Source: Escherichia phage 132. Taken from it: a stretch of DNA of 64,000 bases. The notes under the pieces are model-generated. The model was not told the DNA's origin. It was given only the letters and a program-made list of their open reading frames with translations, and did no database searches. This document shows positions 4,915-38,051 of this stretch, one piece after another. Both the position numbers and the translations under genes were made by a program. Each line of letters starts with the position of its first letter. Positions within the stretch are counted from its first letter, which is position 1. The stretch lies in sequence record MZ417521. One strand, 5' to 3'.

Positions 4915-4951
4915 TTTCACCTCTTAGCTCAATTCATAGATCTATTATATC

Positions 4952-4981
4952 ATAATATTTGAAGATCTATCTTAAAGCATA
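4952..4981 (-). promoter_or_regulatory. Possible middle promoter for gene 55
   Basis: Minus strand TATGCTTTA box followed by TATTAT, but spacing is 15 nt, longer than typical. Confidence 0.25.
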
Positions 4982-4992
4982 GAGGATATCAG

Positions 4993-5262
4993 TTATCTAA
5001 GTAAACAGTATGCTTGGAACACTTTCTCCATCATCTTTTTAAATTCATGAATATCTATATAATGACTAGTTAAATCAGCATGATATAAAAAGTCTAAAAA
5101 CTTTTCATGTGTGCTAACATATTCGCTTTCATTTAATTCAGAAACATGGCTTTCCCAATATCCAACACCAGTCTTATTTGGGAAAAATGAAATTTTCATA
5201 TATTGGTCAACATAGAAAATTCCATAATTTTCAATAGTAATAGAAATATTAATAAATTTCAT
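4993..5262 (-). CDS. Hypothetical 89-aa protein
   Basis: ORF track; first of three ORFs coupled by 4-nt overlaps. Confidence 0.5.
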   Translation of the reverse strand: MKFINISITIENYGIFYVDQYMKISFFPNKTGVGYWESHVSELNESEYVSTHEKFLDFLYHADLTSHYIDIHEFKKMMEKVFQAYCLLR

Positions 5263-5480
5263 ACATTCATCAACTTAGCCGCTTCAAGAGCTGCATCTAG
5301 TGAATCAAATTGGTCAACGTATTCAATCAATTCGCCATAATTAGCGTATAACCACCATTGGCTAAATTCATACTCAAGGATGAATCCGTTTCCTTCAATT
5401 TGAGTTAAACCAATGCCATTTGTATTTACTTCATATCCGGCAAGACGTAAATCGTTAATAAGAGCTTCGTTCATATTCAT
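5259..5480 (-). CDS. Hypothetical 73-aa protein
   Basis: ORF track; 4-nt overlaps with both neighbours. Confidence 0.5.
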   Translation of the reverse strand: MNMNEALINDLRLAGYEVNTNGIGLTQIEGNGFILEYEFSQWWLYANYGELIEYVDQFDSLDAALEAAKLMNV

Positions 5481-23768: not shown

Positions 23769-24155
23769 TTATTCGAGGGAAAGAAGATATTTACTCTGGT
23801 AAAACATTCCAGTAATATCATCTATCGTGCTTTGGATGGCTGGAGGCATTTCTTTATAAATGCTGTTAGATTGGTCTAGTATGCGATCAATCATTTTAAT
23901 TGTGTCGGTAGGAAGTTTACTAGCATCTGGAATTGAAGGTGTGTATTTTCTACCAGAATACCCCAAATACTGCTCACCAAATTTGTCAATCAAATCTGGT
24001 AACTCAGAAAAAATAAAATCGTATGCTTTGTGCCTAGCATAACTTTTAGTTTCAAAATGTGCAGAATGAAAATAAGCTTGCGCAGCCATTAATAAACCTA
24101 AGTATTCATCTGCCTTTGAAGGTTTTCCACTTTGTGAAAAGTCGCTGAATTTCAT
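23769..24155 (-). CDS. Hypothetical 128-aa protein (position of T4 rI.-1)
   Basis: ORF track; 4-nt overlap with rI; followed by a UUCG-loop terminator. Confidence 0.55.
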
Positions 24156-24445
24156 TCAGTCTCCAATTTAATGTTCATAATTCTAGCGTATGATTGTGCC
24201 ATCTCCGCGCCTCGTTCTATACATTCAAAATCAGAAGAGCACGGGTCATTTTTATAGGTCGTTCTCATAAAACTATAGAACTGTTCAGATGATTCTACGC
24301 TTTTATTTTCAAAAAGCATATAAACGTGCCTAATACCAGATTCCATAAATTTATCAAAATGAGGATCGACATTCGCTTCAATCGATGGAGATAAAACAAA
24401 TGACAATCCTAGCATGGCAAAAAGTGCCGTTGCTTTTAAGGCCAT
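24152..24445 (-). CDS. rI: Lysis-inhibition regulator RI (periplasmic antiholin, signal-anchor N-terminus)
   Basis: 97 aa, MALKATALFAMLGLSFVLSPSIEA signal-anchor; length and sequence match my recollection of T4 RI; GGAGG SD. Confidence 0.7.
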   Translation of the reverse strand: MALKATALFAMLGLSFVLSPSIEANVDPHFDKFMESGIRHVYMLFENKSVESSEQFYSFMRTTYKNDPCSSDFECIERGAEMAQSYARIMNIKLETE

Positions 24446-24457
24446 AAAGGCCTCCTA

Positions 24458-24670
24458 TCATTTTTGTCCTGTATTTACTTTATGCCGATGCACGGCCTTA
24501 ACTTTATCAAGGTATTTTTCAAAATTTCGCAATCTAGTATAGTCTGCCGGAGATTGGTTGAGTGATACTTCTCGACGCAAAGCTGAAATGATATTTCCAA
24601 CTTCCCTACGAATTTCATCTAATTGAAGAACAGTAAGATTGCGAAGTTGCTTTTCAGTTAATTGTAGCAT
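24458..24670 (-). CDS. Hypothetical 70-aa basic protein (position of T4 rI.1)
   Basis: ORF track; AAGGGG SD; TATAAATA late-promoter box 25 nt upstream. Confidence 0.5.
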
Positions 24671-24695
24671 ATATACCCCTTTAGTTAGATAAACC

Positions 24696-24703
24696 TATTT
24701 ATA
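24696..24703 (-). promoter_or_regulatory. Late promoter (TATAAATA) upstream of ORF 24458..24670 and rI
   Basis: Exact TATAAATA on the minus strand 25 nt upstream of the ATG, with AAGGGG SD between. Confidence 0.4.
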
Positions 24704-24712
24704 ACTTTTGCA

Positions 24713-25294
24713 CTAACCGAGTTTTTTAGTTAATTCATTCCAATGTTTTCTACACAAAGAAACATAAATTTCATCACCAATACAGATTTGATTACCTTCT
24801 TTAACTGGTGTTCCATCTTCCATTAATCGAGCTGTCATAATCGCTTTTTTGCCGCAATGACAAACTGCCTTTAGTTCAATAAGTTTATCTGCAATCGCTA
24901 AAAGTTCTTTAGAACCTTCAAACAATTTTCCAGCGAAATCAGTCCTTAATCCATAAGCCATAACAGGAACATTATATGTATCAACAATTCGACTCAATTG
25001 ATGCACCTGTTCAGTTTTTAAAAACTGAGCTTCATCTACAAATACGCAATGAATATCTTTTTGTGCTTCAGCCCATTTATAGAACTCGAAAATATCCATA
25101 TCATCTGTAATAATATTCGCTTCCTGTTTAATTCCAATGCGAGAAACAACTTCACAGACAGAATCGCGAGTATCAATAGCGGGTTTAAGAACTAATACAC
25201 TCATTCCACGTTCTTTATAATTATGTGCGGCAGTCAAAAGAGAAGCAGATTTTCCAGCATTCATTGCTGCATAAGTAAAAATTAAACTCGCCAT
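24713..25294 (-). CDS. tk: Thymidine kinase
   Basis: 193 aa; P-loop NAGKSASLL; C-terminal Zn-binding Cys pairs. Confidence 0.9.
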   Translation of the reverse strand: MASLIFTYAAMNAGKSASLLTAAHNYKERGMSVLVLKPAIDTRDSVCEVVSRIGIKQEANIITDDMDIFEFYKWAEAQKDIHCVFVDEAQFLKTEQVHQLSRIVDTYNVPVMAYGLRTDFAGKLFEGSKELLAIADKLIELKAVCHCGKKAIMTARLMEDGTPVKEGNQICIGDEIYVSLCRKHWNELTKKLG

Positions 25295-25303
25295 ATCACC
25301 TTC

Positions 25304-25489
25304 TTAAAGCGTATTCACATAAGCTATTAATTCATTTTCTTTCTTATCAAACCGATCAGCAAATTCTTCCTGCTGTTCGGGAGATAACGGGCCGTATTCA
25401 TCATAAAAGGTGTTTGCTTCTGTATGCTCATCTAGAAGTTCATGGATAAGCTCAAATAATTTATCTTTTTGTTCTTTACTCAGACTCAT
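25304..25489 (-). CDS. Hypothetical 61-aa acidic protein
   Basis: ORF track. Confidence 0.5.
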   Translation of the reverse strand: MSLSKEQKDKLFELIHELLDEHTEANTFYDEYGPLSPEQQEEFADRFDKKENELIAYVNTL

Positions 25490-25659
25490 ATATTAATTTC
25501 CAGGAGTTTTAAAATAATTCGCTTTTGCTTAAATATTTCCATAGTTAAATGACCAGTATCTTTTTGACCGATTCCAATGGCAAAACCTTTATTAACAGCG
25601 AGTTCAATTAAATTATCAAGCTCACGTAACACTTCGTATTGTAACTCAAAACTATTCAT
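25486..25659 (-). CDS. Hypothetical 57-aa protein
   Basis: Not in the ORF track; ATGA overlaps at both ends; translation MNSFELQYEVLRELDNLIELAVNKGFAIGIGQKDTGHLTMEIFKQKRIILKLLEINI. Confidence 0.35.
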   Translation of the reverse strand: MNSFELQYEVLRELDNLIELAVNKGFAIGIGQKDTGHLTMEIFKQKRIILKLLEINI

Positions 25660-25862
25660 TTTGGTTTACCTTCTTTAACGAAATCTGGATAAGGATAAAA
25701 TCCCGAATAAAATCCTTCACCTTTATGATTGATACATCCTTTATTAGAACAATAGCACCAATAATCGAAATCACAAGCCATTTCATCGTTGCATAAAGCA
25801 AAAACAACCGGCCACTTACACTTTTCACAATAGGCATTTTTAAGAATACTAGTTTGGCTCAT
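25656..25862 (-). CDS. Cys-rich small protein (possible Zn-binding)
   Basis: Start at third ATG with AAGGTGA SD; Cys-rich CEKCKW...CND...CDFDYWCYCSNKGCINH. Confidence 0.45.
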   Translation of the reverse strand: MSQTSILKNAYCEKCKWPVVFALCNDEMACDFDYWCYCSNKGCINHKGEGFYSGFYPYPDFVKEGKPK

Positions 25863-26071
25863 AACCATGTCACCTTCAAGCAATATTCTTCTACATGCTG
25901 TTTACGACCTTTCTTATCAATAAAGGTATATTCAACGAATGTTCCAATGTAGTCTTTATCTACATCATGTAGGCTATTAATTGGGCATTTAGTACGGCAA
26001 ATGCGTTCCCATTGACGAATAATTTCTGCTTTGTTTTTAGGATCAAACGGATGCGGGTAATGCACTTTCAT
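25859..26071 (-). CDS. Hypothetical 70-aa protein
   Basis: ORF track; overlaps the macro-domain gene stop by 29 nt. Confidence 0.45.
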   Translation of the reverse strand: MKVHYPHPFDPKNKAEIIRQWERICRTKCPINSLHDVDKDYIGTFVEYTFIDKKGRKQHVEEYCLKVTWL

Positions 26072-26522
26072 AATCCACCACTATTAAATCAATATCAGGA
26101 GTAAACATGTCGATTAATTTAGAAACCTTATCCCAATCACCGCCAGCAATACCACAACCTATGCGTGGAATGTAAATTACTGGTTTAAACAAAAGGGTTT
26201 CTGCCTGTAGATTTAATTCTATCATGCAGTTTACTAAAGCACCATAATCAAGATTAGGACCTGGTTCGTATTGCGTATACAGGTTATAGCATATACCAAA
26301 ACCATTAGGTTTATGTTTAAAAACAATAGACATATCGCCTAATTTATCACGCGAACCATATTCAGTTGTGGTCTTATCTATTTCTAAAATTTTGGGATAG
26401 GCTCTTGCTAATTGACCCGCTACACCTGAACCCATAGTATGAAAACAGTTACACCCATGCGCAATAATATTACCTTGAAGAAATAGGGCGACAATATCGC
26501 CCTTGATATATTTTACAATCAT
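26043..26522 (-). CDS. Macro-domain-like protein (putative ADP-ribose binding/hydrolase)
   Basis: 159 aa; motifs GDIV...NIIAHGCNC, GSGVAGQL, IYIPRIGCGIAGG line up with macro-domain signatures. Confidence 0.5.
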   Translation of the reverse strand: MIVKYIKGDIVALFLQGNIIAHGCNCFHTMGSGVAGQLARAYPKILEIDKTTTEYGSRDKLGDMSIVFKHKPNGFGICYNLYTQYEPGPNLDYGALVNCMIELNLQAETLLFKPVIYIPRIGCGIAGGDWDKVSKLIDMFTPDIDLIVVDYESALPASV

Positions 26523-26866
26523 CTAGTACTCAATCCTCGATTATAAGAATCTACCAAACGGTCAACCATTGAATGACAAGCGGCTTTATCTTTCTCCTCC
26601 GCAACTGAACATTCTAAGGTATTCCACTTTTTAGCATATCGTTTTAATAATGTATCGTTTTTGTATCTGCTTGATTTATCTCTTTCTCCGTCTTTATATG
26701 CATATATTAATTTCTGTGCAAATTCAGCTTGGCATGCTTTATTTTTCCCACAATAATCTGCCGCAGTGCGGTTTACATATTCTCTAATTTCAGTATATGA
26801 TGTATCTGCTGACGCAGAAGCAGAAAATGAAATTAATCCTATACATAAAACCAAAATTTTAGTCAT
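26519..26866 (-). CDS. Secreted/periplasmic small protein with signal peptide (position of T4 vs)
   Basis: 115 aa; N-terminus MTKILVLCIGLISFSASASA; several Cys. Confidence 0.5.
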   Translation of the reverse strand: MTKILVLCIGLISFSASASADTSYTEIREYVNRTAADYCGKNKACQAEFAQKLIYAYKDGERDKSSRYKNDTLLKRYAKKWNTLECSVAEEKDKAACHSMVDRLVDSYNRGLSTR

Positions 26867-27404
26867 TTACTATTTCCAAAAGTTTATTATTTTTAAGGTA
26901 ATTAGCCTTTTCTAGGACTTCAGAAGCATATTTAGAACCTGCTTTAACATTCCATCCCGAATTATAAGAGGATATTGCTTTTCTTATATCGCCCTTATGT
27001 ATATTTAACCAATAAGAAAGTTCAATGTACGCCCAGGAAGCTGAATTGGACCGTTTATTCAACATTCTTTTTATTTCAGCATCAGTCATATTATAACCAA
27101 GTTCCTTAACTCTTGCTCGCATAGTAGGCAAATAATTTTGGAACATTCCATAAGCGTGATGCTTTGGTTTAGATTTTAAATTAACTCCGCCAGAGCTTTC
27201 TTGCCATAAAATGGCTGCCATTATATGACCCAATCCACTCTTGTGGATATTTTTGTGTGTTTTATATTTTCCATCCTTAGAAAATTGTTCCCCGAATTGA
27301 TACGCGTAACGCATGTTATCGAGTTGGACATTACTGAAAGTATGCTCGGAGCTATGTGCCATCATTGAAATGGCCAATAGACCAGCGAGTAGTGCTTTTC
27401 TCAT
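26859..27404 (-). CDS. Periplasmic lytic transglycosylase-like protein (lysozyme-like fold) with signal peptide
   Basis: 181 aa; signal peptide MRKALLAGLLAISMMAHS; transglycosylase-like motifs ILWQESSGG and SYNSGW. Confidence 0.55.
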   Translation of the reverse strand: MRKALLAGLLAISMMAHSSEHTFSNVQLDNMRYAYQFGEQFSKDGKYKTHKNIHKSGLGHIMAAILWQESSGGVNLKSKPKHHAYGMFQNYLPTMRARVKELGYNMTDAEIKRMLNKRSNSASWAYIELSYWLNIHKGDIRKAISSYNSGWNVKAGSKYASEVLEKANYLKNNKLLEIVND

Positions 27405-27411
27405 GCTTACC

Positions 27412-27873
27412 TCATTGAGTTTTAATTACTGCTTTAGAAGCCTTTCCTGGTAAACGACGACTGTTGATAATTGCCATCCTGCATTGAAGTGACGGGTTTT
27501 TGAACTTCTCATTAGGCTTACAAACTGTAAATCCAAGCCAAAGATTTCCATCTGTGATTTCTAAACGCCCAGGACGATATTCAACACCATCAATAAAATC
27601 CTCGTCAATGTCAGGACGCGGAGGCATACTCAGGAATTCATTAACTTCTAAAACATGGTCTTTTATTTTATGGAATAATTCAAAAACATATGTCTCATCA
27701 ATCTCCCGTTGAATTGCGCGATCAAGAAGATGCTGAGAATATTTTAGATGAAACGATGAGACCCCTGCTGCTTTTGATGCCTCACGAATCTCATTGTTAA
27801 TTTGACGAAACTCCGACTCAAAGTGACGACGAAGCTTATTTCGACGGATAAAAACTTCTGTATTGATAGTCAT
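27412..27873 (-). CDS. regB: RegB site-specific endoribonuclease
   Basis: 153 aa; matches my recollection of T4 RegB; early promoter immediately upstream. Confidence 0.75.
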   Translation of the reverse strand: MTINTEVFIRRNKLRRHFESEFRQINNEIREASKAAGVSSFHLKYSQHLLDRAIQREIDETYVFELFHKIKDHVLEVNEFLSMPPRPDIDEDFIDGVEYRPGRLEITDGNLWLGFTVCKPNEKFKNPSLQCRMAIINSRRLPGKASKAVIKTQ

Positions 27874-27900
27874 GTTATTCTCCTCTTAACTGATAGAAAA

Positions 27901-27930
27901 ATTATACCACAGTCAAGAGGAAAAGTAAAC
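27901..27930 (-). promoter_or_regulatory. Early sigma70-type promoter
   Basis: Minus strand GTTTAC-N18-TGG-TATAAT; upstream of regB. Confidence 0.65.
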
Positions 27931-27932
27931 AG

Positions 27933-28211
27933 TTATTCTTTAAATCTAATCAATTTATTCATAGACTTTGAAACTTCTGCACGAACCTCATGCAGATTTT
28001 TGAGCTGTTCAAGACGCTGCGTATAGTAAGCAATTTCATCTTCTTCGAGACAGTCCTGTGAATCTTCTTTAAGATAACGTGCATAGTCCTGAAAAGCGTT
28101 ACGAACTACTTCCTGGAAATCATCAAGACTTTGAATTTTCTTAGGAGCAGCAGATACACGACGAGGGGCAGTATAATACTCATAACCAAACCCTGCGCTT
28201 AATTGAGCCAT
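27933..28211 (-). CDS. Hypothetical 92-aa protein (first gene after regB)
   Basis: Internal ATG ([13 protein letters not shown]...) with ATGA overlap to the upstream gene. Confidence 0.5.
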
Positions 28212-28477
28212 TAGTATTTTTCCTCTGGTTGGAACACTGCACGACAAGCCCACATACTGGCTTCTTTGAGTTTCGCTTTAGCAATAGTTAACTGATCGAG
28301 GCTTTCAGCATAATTCTTCGCGAATTCACAGTCTTCGCAATTATCTAGTGCTTCCCAAAATTCATCATATAAAGCGTCAAAGATAAGTCCTAAACGAACT
28401 TCAGCGTCTTTAATAGCATTTACTTTACCGATTTTTTCGTCGGTATGTGGCTTATAACCTTTAATATCTTCAATCAT
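28211..28477 (-). CDS. Hypothetical 88-aa protein at the T4 vs.4 (Acb2) position
   Basis: Internal ATG with GAGGAAG SD; second gene after regB; identity as a cyclic-oligonucleotide sponge is positional only. Confidence 0.45.
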
Positions 28478-28691
28478 ATTTGACTTCCTCACCAGTGCAT
28501 AAATCATATTCAACTAAACGAATAGGTTCATGAATGCCATATCCTTGAACAGAAATTTCTGTAGTAGGATAAATTCCATTAATATCACCCATGTTCCATG
28601 CTTCGTTAAATTGCTGTTCGCCTGAATTACTAAACCATTCGGCGAAAGCATTTAGCACATCTTCAGAACCTTCAATAATTATCTTTGCCAT
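28470..28691 (-). CDS. Hypothetical 73-aa acidic protein
   Basis: ORF track; TAATG overlap with the upstream gene. Confidence 0.5.
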   Translation of the reverse strand: MAKIIIEGSEDVLNAFAEWFSNSGEQQFNEAWNMGDINGIYPTTEISVQGYGIHEPIRLVEYDLCTGEEVKYD

Positions 28692-29053
28692 TACAAACTC
28701 TCGGTAAAGGTACGAGCGATAACGTCGCGCTGCTGTTCCGGAGTCAGAGAGTTAAAGCGAACTGCATAACCGGATACACGGATGGTCAGCTGCGGATATT
28801 TTTCCGGATGCTTAACTGCATCTTCCAGAGTTTCACGACGCAGAACGTTAACGTTCAGGTGTTGACCACCTTCAATTTTAACTGTAGGCTGTGGCTCAAT
28901 TTCAATTTCACGGGCATGCAAACCATAGAAAATTTCTGGGTCTACAAAAGAGTCCTCTTTAAAGGTTTTAGAAACGATAATTCGTGCTTGAATACCATCT
29001 TCAAAATAAATAGTACCTTTATGTGTGCCTTCAAGAATTTGATATGCTTTCAT
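28691..29053 (-). CDS. Autonomous glycyl-radical cofactor (GrcA/YfiD-like)
   Basis: 120 aa; C-terminal half ...[60 protein letters not shown] carries the RVSGY glycyl-radical motif and matches E. coli GrcA as I recall it; 3' part of the gene is visibly more GC-rich than its surroundings. Confidence 0.75.
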
Positions 29054-29060
29054 ATAAACC

Positions 29061-29390
29061 TCAATTAGAAAATAAATTTATCCAAGATTGTTCTTTAATT
29101 AAAAACGGCTCAGAATCATATGCCATTAAACTTTGGGTAATTAATCCTTTAAAAGGTCCATCAATAAATTCCATGGTAAAATATGGAATTTTATTCATTA
29201 ATCTTGCATTAGGAGCAGTGCACAAAACTCTGCATCCTTTGAATACGCCTTTTTGTAATTTGTATTGCTTAGGATAAAATTCGCTCAAGACGTTGTTATT
29301 TGCCAAAATTTCAAAATGATTCACCAATTTATTTTTAATAGTTTTTGGCGAAAAATAAAGATATTCGAAAAGTTGCGTATCTGTCATCAT
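29061..29390 (-). CDS. Hypothetical 109-aa protein
   Basis: Start at ATGATGA overlap with the upstream gene; the ORF-track start is further upstream. Confidence 0.45.
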
Positions 29391-37223: not shown

Positions 37224-37299
37224 TGGTCGAGGCAGTAGGGATCGAACCTACGACCTAGGACTTAGAAGGTCCTTGCTCTTCCTTCTGAGCTATGCCTCG
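37224..37299 (-). tRNA. tRNA-Arg (anticodon TCT)
   Basis: Cloverleaf folded by hand: D stem GCTC/GAGC, anticodon loop CTTCTAA, T arm GTAGG-TTCGATC-CCTAC, 3' CCA encoded. Confidence 0.8.
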
Positions 37300-37303
37300 G
37301 ATT

Positions 37304-37378
37304 TGGCGGACGTGATAGGATTCGAACCTATAACCAATCGCTTAACAGGCGATCGCTCTGCCATTGAGCTACACATCC
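37304..37378 (-). tRNA. tRNA-Asn (anticodon GTT)
   Basis: Acceptor GGATGTG/CACGTCC, anticodon stem ATCGC/GCGAT with loop CTGTTAA, T loop TTCGAAT, CCA encoded. Confidence 0.75.
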
Positions 37379-37382
37379 AAAT

Positions 37383-37469
37383 TGGTGGGGAGTGATGGAG
37401 TCGAACCACCCGAGTCGCAATGACAATGGATTTACAGTCCACACCGCTACCTCTACGGGATAACTCCCC
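37383..37469 (-). tRNA. tRNA-Tyr (anticodon GTA), long variable arm
   Basis: Acceptor GGGGAGT/ACTCCCC, anticodon loop CTGTAAA, long variable arm, T loop TTCGACT, CCA encoded. Confidence 0.7.
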
Positions 37470-37478
37470 AAATTAATT

Positions 37479-37553
37479 TGGTGGCCCTGGGTGGAATTGA
37501 ACCACCATCTGGCGATTATGAGTCGCTTGCTTGAACCTTCCAGCTACAGGGCC
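37479..37553 (-). tRNA. tRNA-Ile/Met (anticodon CAT; likely the lysidine-modified AUA-reading Ile as in T4)
   Basis: Acceptor GGCCCTG/CAGGGCC, anticodon loop CTCATAA, CCA encoded; 1 nt from tRNA-Thr. Confidence 0.75.
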
Positions 37554-37554
37554 T

Positions 37555-37630
37555 TGGTGCTGATTGACGGAATCGAACCGCCGACGTCCTCATTACAAGT
37601 GAGGTGCTCTACCTACTGAGCTAAATCAGC
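37555..37630 (-). tRNA. tRNA-Thr (anticodon TGT)
   Basis: Acceptor GCTGATT/AATCAGC, anticodon stem-loop CCTCA-CTTGTAA-TGAGG, CCA encoded. Confidence 0.8.
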
Positions 37631-37635
37631 AAAAC

Positions 37636-37725
37636 TGGCGGAGGCGATAGGATTTGAACCTATGAGTCGCCGGAGCGACTGCCGGTTTTCAAGACCGGTG
37701 CATTAAACCACTCTGCCACGCCTCC
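37636..37725 (-). tRNA. tRNA-Ser (anticodon TGA), long variable arm
   Basis: Acceptor GGAGGCG/CGCCTCC, anticodon loop CTTGAAA, long variable arm, CCA encoded. Confidence 0.8.
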
Positions 37726-37727
37726 AG

Positions 37728-37801
37728 TCTCCGCGGCAGGATTTGAACCTGCGACATTCTGCTCCCAAAGCAGACGCTCTACCAAACTGAGCTACACGGA
37801 G
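37728..37801 (-). tRNA. tRNA-Pro (anticodon TGG)
   Basis: Anticodon stem TCTGC/GCAGA with loop TTTGGGA, T loop TTCAAAT; CCA not encoded; 2 nt from tRNA-Ser. Confidence 0.75.
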
Positions 37802-37811
37802 TAAATTAAAT

Positions 37812-37885
<74 letters not shown>

Positions 37886-37890
37886 AAATT

Positions 37891-37977
37891 TGGTGCGAGA
37901 AGTGGGACTCGAACCCACAAGGAAATCATTCCGCAGCATTTTAAGTGCTGTGCCTTTACCAATTTGACCATTCTCGC
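37891..37977 (-). tRNA. tRNA-Leu (anticodon TAA), long variable arm
   Basis: Acceptor GCGAGAA/TTCTCGC, anticodon loop CTTAAAA, long variable arm, CCA encoded. Confidence 0.8.
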
Positions 37978-37978
37978 G

Positions 37979-38051
37979 CTGGGAATAAAGGACTCGAACC
38001 TTTGCATCCTGGAATCAAAATCCAGTGCCTTACCAACTTGGCTAATTCCCA
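37979..38051 (-). tRNA. tRNA-Gln (anticodon TTG)
   Basis: Acceptor TGGGAAT/ATTCCCA, anticodon stem-loop CTGGA-TTTTGAT-TCCAG; CCA not encoded; 1 nt from tRNA-Leu. Confidence 0.8.

Follow-up and report, generated by a model that had tools for sequence, protein, structure and literature searches.

The window analysed here is a stretch of 64,000 nucleotides from Escherichia phage 132 (sequence record MZ417521), a Tequatrovirus in which positions 24000-28000 show ~98.5% identity to RB3 and related phages. The leftward vs-tk gene run, with all genes on one strand, includes an ORF whose 159-residue product, Tk.4, matched PHROG 335 with E=2e-71. The counterpart in the RB3 RefSeq record is RB3_116, which carries the note "tk.4" and the product name "phosphatase" and is flanked by vs and tk.3. 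T4 tk.4 (product accession NP_049723) occupies the equivalent slot, where the T4 record states "contains A1pp phosphatase motif", and the order vs, tk.4, tk.3 is common to the window, RB3, T4, T2 and T6. The window and T4 proteins aligned without gaps over 155 residues with 57% identity. On the grounds of its locus and of homology over the full length, the window gene is identified as the orthologue of T4 tk.4 (adfM). The gene and its likely role were already known before the present analysis. A paper of 2006 had already assigned tk.4 orthologues to the A1pp/macro domain (PMC1524935), and many GenBank records label tk.4 homologues "macro domain protein". The additions made here are the divergent RB3-type form, its cassette-like mosaic setting and what appears, from the residues, to be a Gln-type active site. 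The coordinates of the features are collected in Table 1. The best database match to window Tk.4 (99.4%) was PV654520.1, titled 'Pseudomonas phage vB_PSGBLB0006' with P. aeruginosa ATCC 9027 as host; this record is essentially Tequatrovirus sequence and may be mislabelled or contaminated.

Table 1. Features of the tk.4 locus in window coordinates
Feature	Position	Strand	Basis or remark
tk.4 / adfM CDS, 159 aa, stand-alone macrodomain, RB3-type form	26043..26522	-	ATG-initiated ORF, Pfam Macro, PHROG 335
ATGA overlap of vs stop and tk.4 start	26519..26522	-	Sequence and ORF coordinates
GC-rich hairpin AGGGCGATATTGTCGCCCT, codons 7-13 of tk.4, followed by a T-rich run	26485..26503	-	Flagged as terminator-like; edge of the divergent cassette
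Residues 18-26, NIIAHGCNC	26445..26471	-	H22 and N25 invariant, aligned with SCO6735 H24 and N27
Residues 31-38, GSGVAGQL, putative GxG loop of the ADP-ribose cleft	26409..26432	-	G31 and G33 kept in reference macrodomains
Residues 80-84, NLYTQ	26271..26285	-	Q84 invariant; at the position of TARG1 K84, DarG K80 and SCO6735 Q85
Residues 116-130, IYIPRIGCGIAGGDW, putative phosphate-binding loop	26133..26177	-	Near-identical to SCO6735 PRIGCGLAGGTW
Island divergent from T4: tk.2-like ORF, 57-aa ORF, 75-aa zinc-binding ORF, (conserved tk.3 core), tk.4	25295..26490	-	Per-gene and sliding DNA identity

The start of tk.4 overlaps the stop codon of vs, and at its 3' end tk.4 shares 29 nt with the next ORF. 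In the predicted RNA fold of 26460-26560 (minus strand), a Shine-Dalgarno-like GAGGA and the AUG are paired with the 3' end of vs; the minimum free energy was -25.8 kcal/mol (z = -2.57), and 1 of 200 shuffles did as well. The ATGA overlap and the predicted pairing of the start site suggest that translation of tk.4 depends on, and is coupled to, that of vs. The first 38 nt of tk.4 (26485-26522), including the hairpin, are identical in the window, RB3, T4, T2 and T6. The hairpin lies at the cassette edge and may mark a boundary of recombination or act as a regulatory RNA structure. A scan of 24600-29200 for sigma-70 promoters found 16 sites against 18.5 expected from shuffled sequences, that is, no excess. 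One good sigma-70-like site lies upstream of regB (TTTACT-17-TATAAT with TG, 27929-27901), for which no promoter is claimed.

Relative to T4, the tk.4 region forms a sharply bounded mosaic island. The flanking genes rI.-1, rI, rI.1, tk, vs, vs.1 and regB encode proteins that are 99-100% identical to those of T4, against 54% for tk.2, 57% for tk.4 and 93% for tk.3. At the DNA level, a sliding comparison with T4 gave 100% identity from 26492 upward, 40-70% over most of tk.4 (below about 26400), a return to high values in the tk.3 core and low values from there down to tk. T4 tk.1 has no counterpart in the window, where two other small ORFs stand instead. The stretch between tk and tk.3 (25304-25883, minus strand) is a variable islet adjoining the anti-defence gene. 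It holds the tk.2-like ORF (54% to T4 tk.2, Pfam DUF7438), a 57-aa ORF (PHROG 3452; the Pfam search gave no match) and a 75-aa ORF that matched the Pfam 'Phage zinc binding domain' and is probably 68-70 aa long from an internal start. In T2 and T6, too, additional small ORFs lie between tk and tk.3. Elsewhere in the window, vs.1 (26859-27404, minus strand) has a signal-like segment at the N-terminus and an SLT lytic transglycosylase domain whose match was weak but passed the threshold, and vs.6 (28691-29053, minus strand) encodes a GrcA-like glycyl-radical cofactor protein, both as annotated in T4. Ten tRNA genes (Arg, Asn, Tyr, Met, Thr, Ser, Pro, Gly, Leu and Gln) lie at 37224-38051 (minus strand); the T2 stretch has 9, without Thr, and the T6 stretch 7, which is ordinary T-even variation.

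Two forms of Tk.4 are found at this locus. The RB3-type form, present in the window and RB3, has 159 residues and is 98.7% identical between the two; the T4-type form, present in T2, T4 and T6, has 155 residues, with 98.7-100% identity among the three. The window protein is 57% identical to the T2, T4 and T6 proteins. Between window and T4 Tk.4, 43% of the residues differ, and the window form has four extra C-terminal residues. These differences fall mostly at columns that are variable in the family (mean conservation 0.37 versus 0.66). The most conserved of the differing columns are 126 and 127, in the phosphate loop (PRIGCGIAGGDW in the window form, PRIGAGIGKGNW in T4), where the window keeps the consensus GCGIAGG and T4 deviates to GAGIGKG. 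The T4-type protein (4923-5390 in T4; also in T2 and T6) thus has a Lys at 127 against a loop consensus that is 93-97% conserved. Both forms share the invariant residues H22, N25, Q84, G122, G124 and W130. In the phage collection the RB3-type form was found in 312 records (at least 90% identity) and the T4-type form in 224, so RB3-type tk.4 is at least as common as T4-type.

The earlier note on this DNA had described a 159-residue protein with macro-domain motifs, quoting those that lie at Tk.4 residues 8-11, 18-26, 31-38 and 116-128. Profile, fold and binding-loop motifs all bear this description out. Tk.4 matched Pfam Macro (PF01661) over profile positions 2-117 of 118 with 33.1 bits (E=6.1e-8), above the curated gathering score of 22 bits. 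Searched against the PDB as a single sequence, Tk.4 matched BT1257 (1e-10), Poa1p (1e-9), SCO6735 (1e-7), Mycobacterium tuberculosis DarG (2e-5) and TARG1 (9e-3); with a profile of 90 homologues the corresponding values were 1.8e-18, 2.2e-14, 3.9e-15, 2.6e-12 and 1.2e-16. The AlphaFold2 model, computed from a homologue alignment that did not contain the T4 Tk.4 row, has the three-layer α/β/α macro fold with a mean pLDDT of 94 and a pTM of 0.89, and its top Foldseek neighbours were TARG1, BT1257, Poa1p and DarG. By structure and sequence together, the nearest neighbours of Tk.4 are TARG1, DarG, SCO6735, Poa1p and BT1257. From these profile, PDB and Foldseek matches and the model, Tk.4 therefore belongs to the Macro domain family and, within it, to the TARG1/DarG-like ("ALC1-like") class. 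Assignment as a DarG equivalog (NCBIfam NF048014, which requires two domains and 250 bits) was rejected, the match being 27.6 bits over positions 2-138 of 338, with neither the second domain nor the catalytic Lys.

Conserved residues were read from an alignment of 90 diverse Tk.4 family homologues and from a joint alignment with nine reference macrodomains. H22, N25, Q84, G122 and G124 are each present in 90 of 90 family members, and G31 and G33 are kept in all nine of the reference proteins. The segments G31-S-G33 and G122-C-G-I-A-G-G128 align with the equivalent loops of TARG1, DarG and SCO6735. The GxG motif is part of the ADPr-binding cleft (PMC9503650), and both of the ADP-ribose-binding loops, GxG and glycine-rich phosphate loop, appear to be present in Tk.4. 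The catalytic lysine of TARG1 (K84) and DarG (K80) is absent; all 90 family members have Gln84 there instead. In the profile alignment Q84 and A126 fall on TARG1 K84 and D125, the catalytic dyad of the human enzyme (TARG1/OARD1, PDB 4j5r). The joint alignment has Gln at this key position in both Tk.4 forms, in a bacterial family member, in SCO6735 and in BT1257, and Lys in TARG1, both DarGs and PhiKZ AdfM. The direct phmmer alignment of Tk.4 with SCO6735 covered the C-terminal loop only, and the Q85 region was aligned via the family member P0088 and the joint alignment; the resulting correspondences, given as SCO6735 to Tk.4, are H24 to H22, N27 to N25, Q85 to Q84, G126 to G122 and G128 to G124.

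Mutational work on SCO6735 gives these positions a meaning. The enzyme cleaves ADP-ribose from thymidine in DNA by hydrolysis and shields Streptomyces against DarT; Gln85 is essential, the Q85A variant being dead, and is positioned by Asn27 (PMC9411070). The N27S substitution nearly abolished activity and G128E reduced it, the mutant of His24, a residue adjacent to the site, was misfolded, and a water-initiated mechanism has been proposed (PMC9411070). Having the Gln, the stabilising Asn, the His and the Gly-rich loop, Tk.4 fits a site of this SCO6735 (Gln) type. Such an assignment should guide the design of mutants and studies of inhibitors or specificity.

What the gene does in infection is indicated by genetics of the T4 orthologue. 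In a 2025 preprint, a T4 transposon library was screened by HIDEN-SEQ on a host expressing DarTG2, and tk.4 was the single significant hit; a clean T4 tk.4 knockout was sensitised to DarTG2, and the gene was named adfM, for anti-DarT factor Macrodomain (bioRxiv 10.1101/2025.11.20.689424). In the words of that preprint the removal of ADP-ribose from DNA by T4 AdfM "seems likely", an inference of its authors (bioRxiv 10.1101/2025.11.20.689424). T4 and T2 without adfN, and T4 without both adfA and adfN, stay DarTG2-resistant (PMC11825919), which fits the tk.4 result. The T4 form that was tested is only 57% identical to the window form, and the phenotype is therefore extrapolated to RB3-type Tk.4, which may be expected to share it.

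We consider it probable that RB3-type Tk.4 removes DarT2-made ADP-ribose from thymidines of single-stranded DNA through a Gln-type, lysine-independent site. On expression of the vs-tk gene run, Tk.4 would be made, probably by coupling to vs. The bacterial DarT2 toxin attaches ADP-ribose to thymidines of single-stranded phage DNA and so blocks replication; Tk.4 would cut the ADP-ribose off again and thereby stand in, on the phage side, for the DarG2 antitoxin. By analogy with SCO6735, N25 would hold Q84 so that it positions the distal ribose, and hydrolysis would be initiated by an activated water instead of a lysine. DNA ADP-ribosylation by DarT is a widespread anti-phage defence, in which phage-borne erasers decide host range; as an eraser, Tk.4 would explain the DarTG2 resistance of T-even phages.

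Several observations run counter to this probable role, and some of them would favor small soluble ADPr derivatives (ADP-ribose 1''-phosphate, O-acetyl-ADP-ribose, or ADPr-based immune signals or toxins) as the main substrates. Tk.4 lacks the catalytic Lys of DarG, scores 27.6 rather than 250 bits with the DarG equivalog, and is without the DarT-binding C-terminal domain. Its sequence similarity to yeast Poa1p (PDB 6lfq), a 1''-phosphatase acting on a small molecule, is as strong as that to DarG. In an alignment read by eye, allowing a chain offset of three residues, H22 of Tk.4 falls on the Poa1p His (H23) and T29 on S30, the residues mutated in the Poa1p structural study. Soluble substrates are implied by the database labels 'phosphatase', 'A1pp' and 'O-acetyl-ADP-ribose deacetylase', and the comparative-genomics survey of Iyer/Aravind argues for soluble ADPr derivatives as the targets of most phage macrodomains (PMC9503650). 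The gene neighbourhood of Vibrio phage homologues points the same way. The 'phosphatase' label, however, is an old domain name (SMART A1pp) rather than an assayed activity, the one genetic phenotype known for tk.4 is DarTG2 sensitivity, and DarTG2 ADP-ribosylates DNA, and the invariant residues of Tk.4 match those for dT-ADPr-DNA cleavage in SCO6735. We therefore regard soluble derivatives as improbable main substrates, although the two activities are not mutually exclusive.

The Vibrio neighbourhood is of interest in its own right. In Vibrio phage Chester (NC_055830, 3132-6138), the gene for a homologue with 40% identity to Tk.4 (84% of the query aligned) is immediately flanked by genes labelled 'ribose-phosphate pyrophosphokinase' on one side and 'nicotinamide phosphoribosyl transferase' on the other, and Vibrio phages Dax, Ceto and VPMCC14 have the same arrangement. 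The two flanking genes resemble the phage pathway NARP1 (Adps and Namat), which reconstitutes NAD+. This suggests a part in NAD+ salvage, feeding or tidying ADP-ribose, for some macrodomains of this clade. A literature search for a link between NARP1 and macrodomains found none.

The divergence of the two forms bears on how DarT2 is countered. One reading is that Tk.4 neutralises DarT2 mainly by binding the toxin, a stoichiometric inhibition, with the forms diverging by co-evolution with different DarT2 surfaces. Forms that are 43% different in otherwise 99-100% identical genomes are typical of arms-race interaction interfaces, and DarT is inhibited in vitro by each of the catalytically dead variants SCO6735 Q85A, DarG K80A and TARG1 K84A, most strongly by that of SCO6735 (PMC9411070). 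Against this, the active-site residues are invariant in 90 diverse homologues, pointing to selection on catalysis, and Tk.4 is without the DarT-binding domain of DarG; we judge binding as the main mode of action very improbable. A different reading takes RB3-type and T4-type tk.4 as functionally distinct cassettes, swapped among otherwise near-identical T-even genomes under pressure from different DarT toxins, with a lysine-independent, water-mediated (SCO6735-like) chemistry that would be new for phage counter-defence. This we hold to be speculative and on balance unlikely; the forms might, for example, be suited to different DarT2 variants or different modified bases, or one might bind the toxin where the other acts by catalysis. 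That two very different tk.4 forms circulate in otherwise near-identical phages is relevant when the DarTG sensitivity of T4-like phages for therapy is to be predicted.

T-even phages themselves encode three ADP-ribosyltransferases, Alt, ModA and ModB, which modify arginine. The ADP-ribosyl-arginine linkage is cleaved by ARH-type enzymes, and to our knowledge macrodomains do not cleave it. The earlier note had offered two roles for the protein, reversal of host defence and reversal of the phage's own Alt/ModA/ModB modifications. The first is supported by the published genetics of the T4 orthologue; the second found no support. That Tk.4 reverses or edits this ADP-ribosylation of host proteins, or RNAylation, would be in keeping with the presence of the three enzymes and with the ability of TARG1-class enzymes to act on protein-linked ADPr (PMC9411070). 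We nevertheless find it scarcely credible, given the arginine linkage, the absence of alt and mod genes from the neighbourhood of tk.4 in the window region examined, and a phenotype in the T4 screen that appeared only with DarTG2. T4 is strongly restricted by CmdTAC, and Tk.4 therefore evidently does not neutralise the mRNA ADP-ribosylation of that system; in the CmdTAC paper macrodomains appear in the reference list only.

A phage protein that parallels the probable DNA-eraser role is gp104 of the jumbo phage PhiKZ, also named AdfM. Like Tk.4 it is a stand-alone macrodomain; it counters DarTG2 and removes DarT2-made ADP-ribose from a DNA oligonucleotide in vitro (PMC13309987). Unlike Tk.4, PhiKZ gp104 is of the Lys type and DarG-like (FPTKDNW; E=9e-25 to M. 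tuberculosis DarG), and the two proteins were barely alignable by BLASTP (27% over 33 aa). As a DarG relative that hardly aligns with Tk.4, PhiKZ AdfM therefore represents a different macrodomain lineage, and the name AdfM covers two separately acquired lineages. The DarG2 macrodomains themselves (Thermus aquaticus, PDB 5m31, and M. tuberculosis, PDB 5m3i) have catalytic Lys80 where Tk.4 has Gln and Asn at the position of Tk.4 H22, and DarG has in addition the C-terminal DarT-binding domain.

The better match is Streptomyces coelicolor SCO6735 (PDB 5e3b), likewise a stand-alone macrodomain. The identity between the two is ~27%, and they have in common the Gln at the TARG1 K84 / DarG K80 position, the His and the Asn, and a near-identical PRIGCG(L/I)AGGxW loop (PRIGCGIAGGDW in Tk.4, PRIGCGLAGGTW in SCO6735). 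The differences lie around the DNA-contacting residues: Lys34 and Lys89 of SCO6735 are not kept in Tk.4, which has S32 at the position of Lys34 and a shorter loop after the Gln, whereas the longer mobile loop of SCO6735 bears Lys89. SCO6735 is moreover a cellular, DNA-damage-regulated enzyme and Tk.4 the product of a phage gene. As far as the residues can tell, Tk.4 would work like SCO6735, and we assign it provisionally to the Gln type of that enzyme rather than to the Lys type of DarG.
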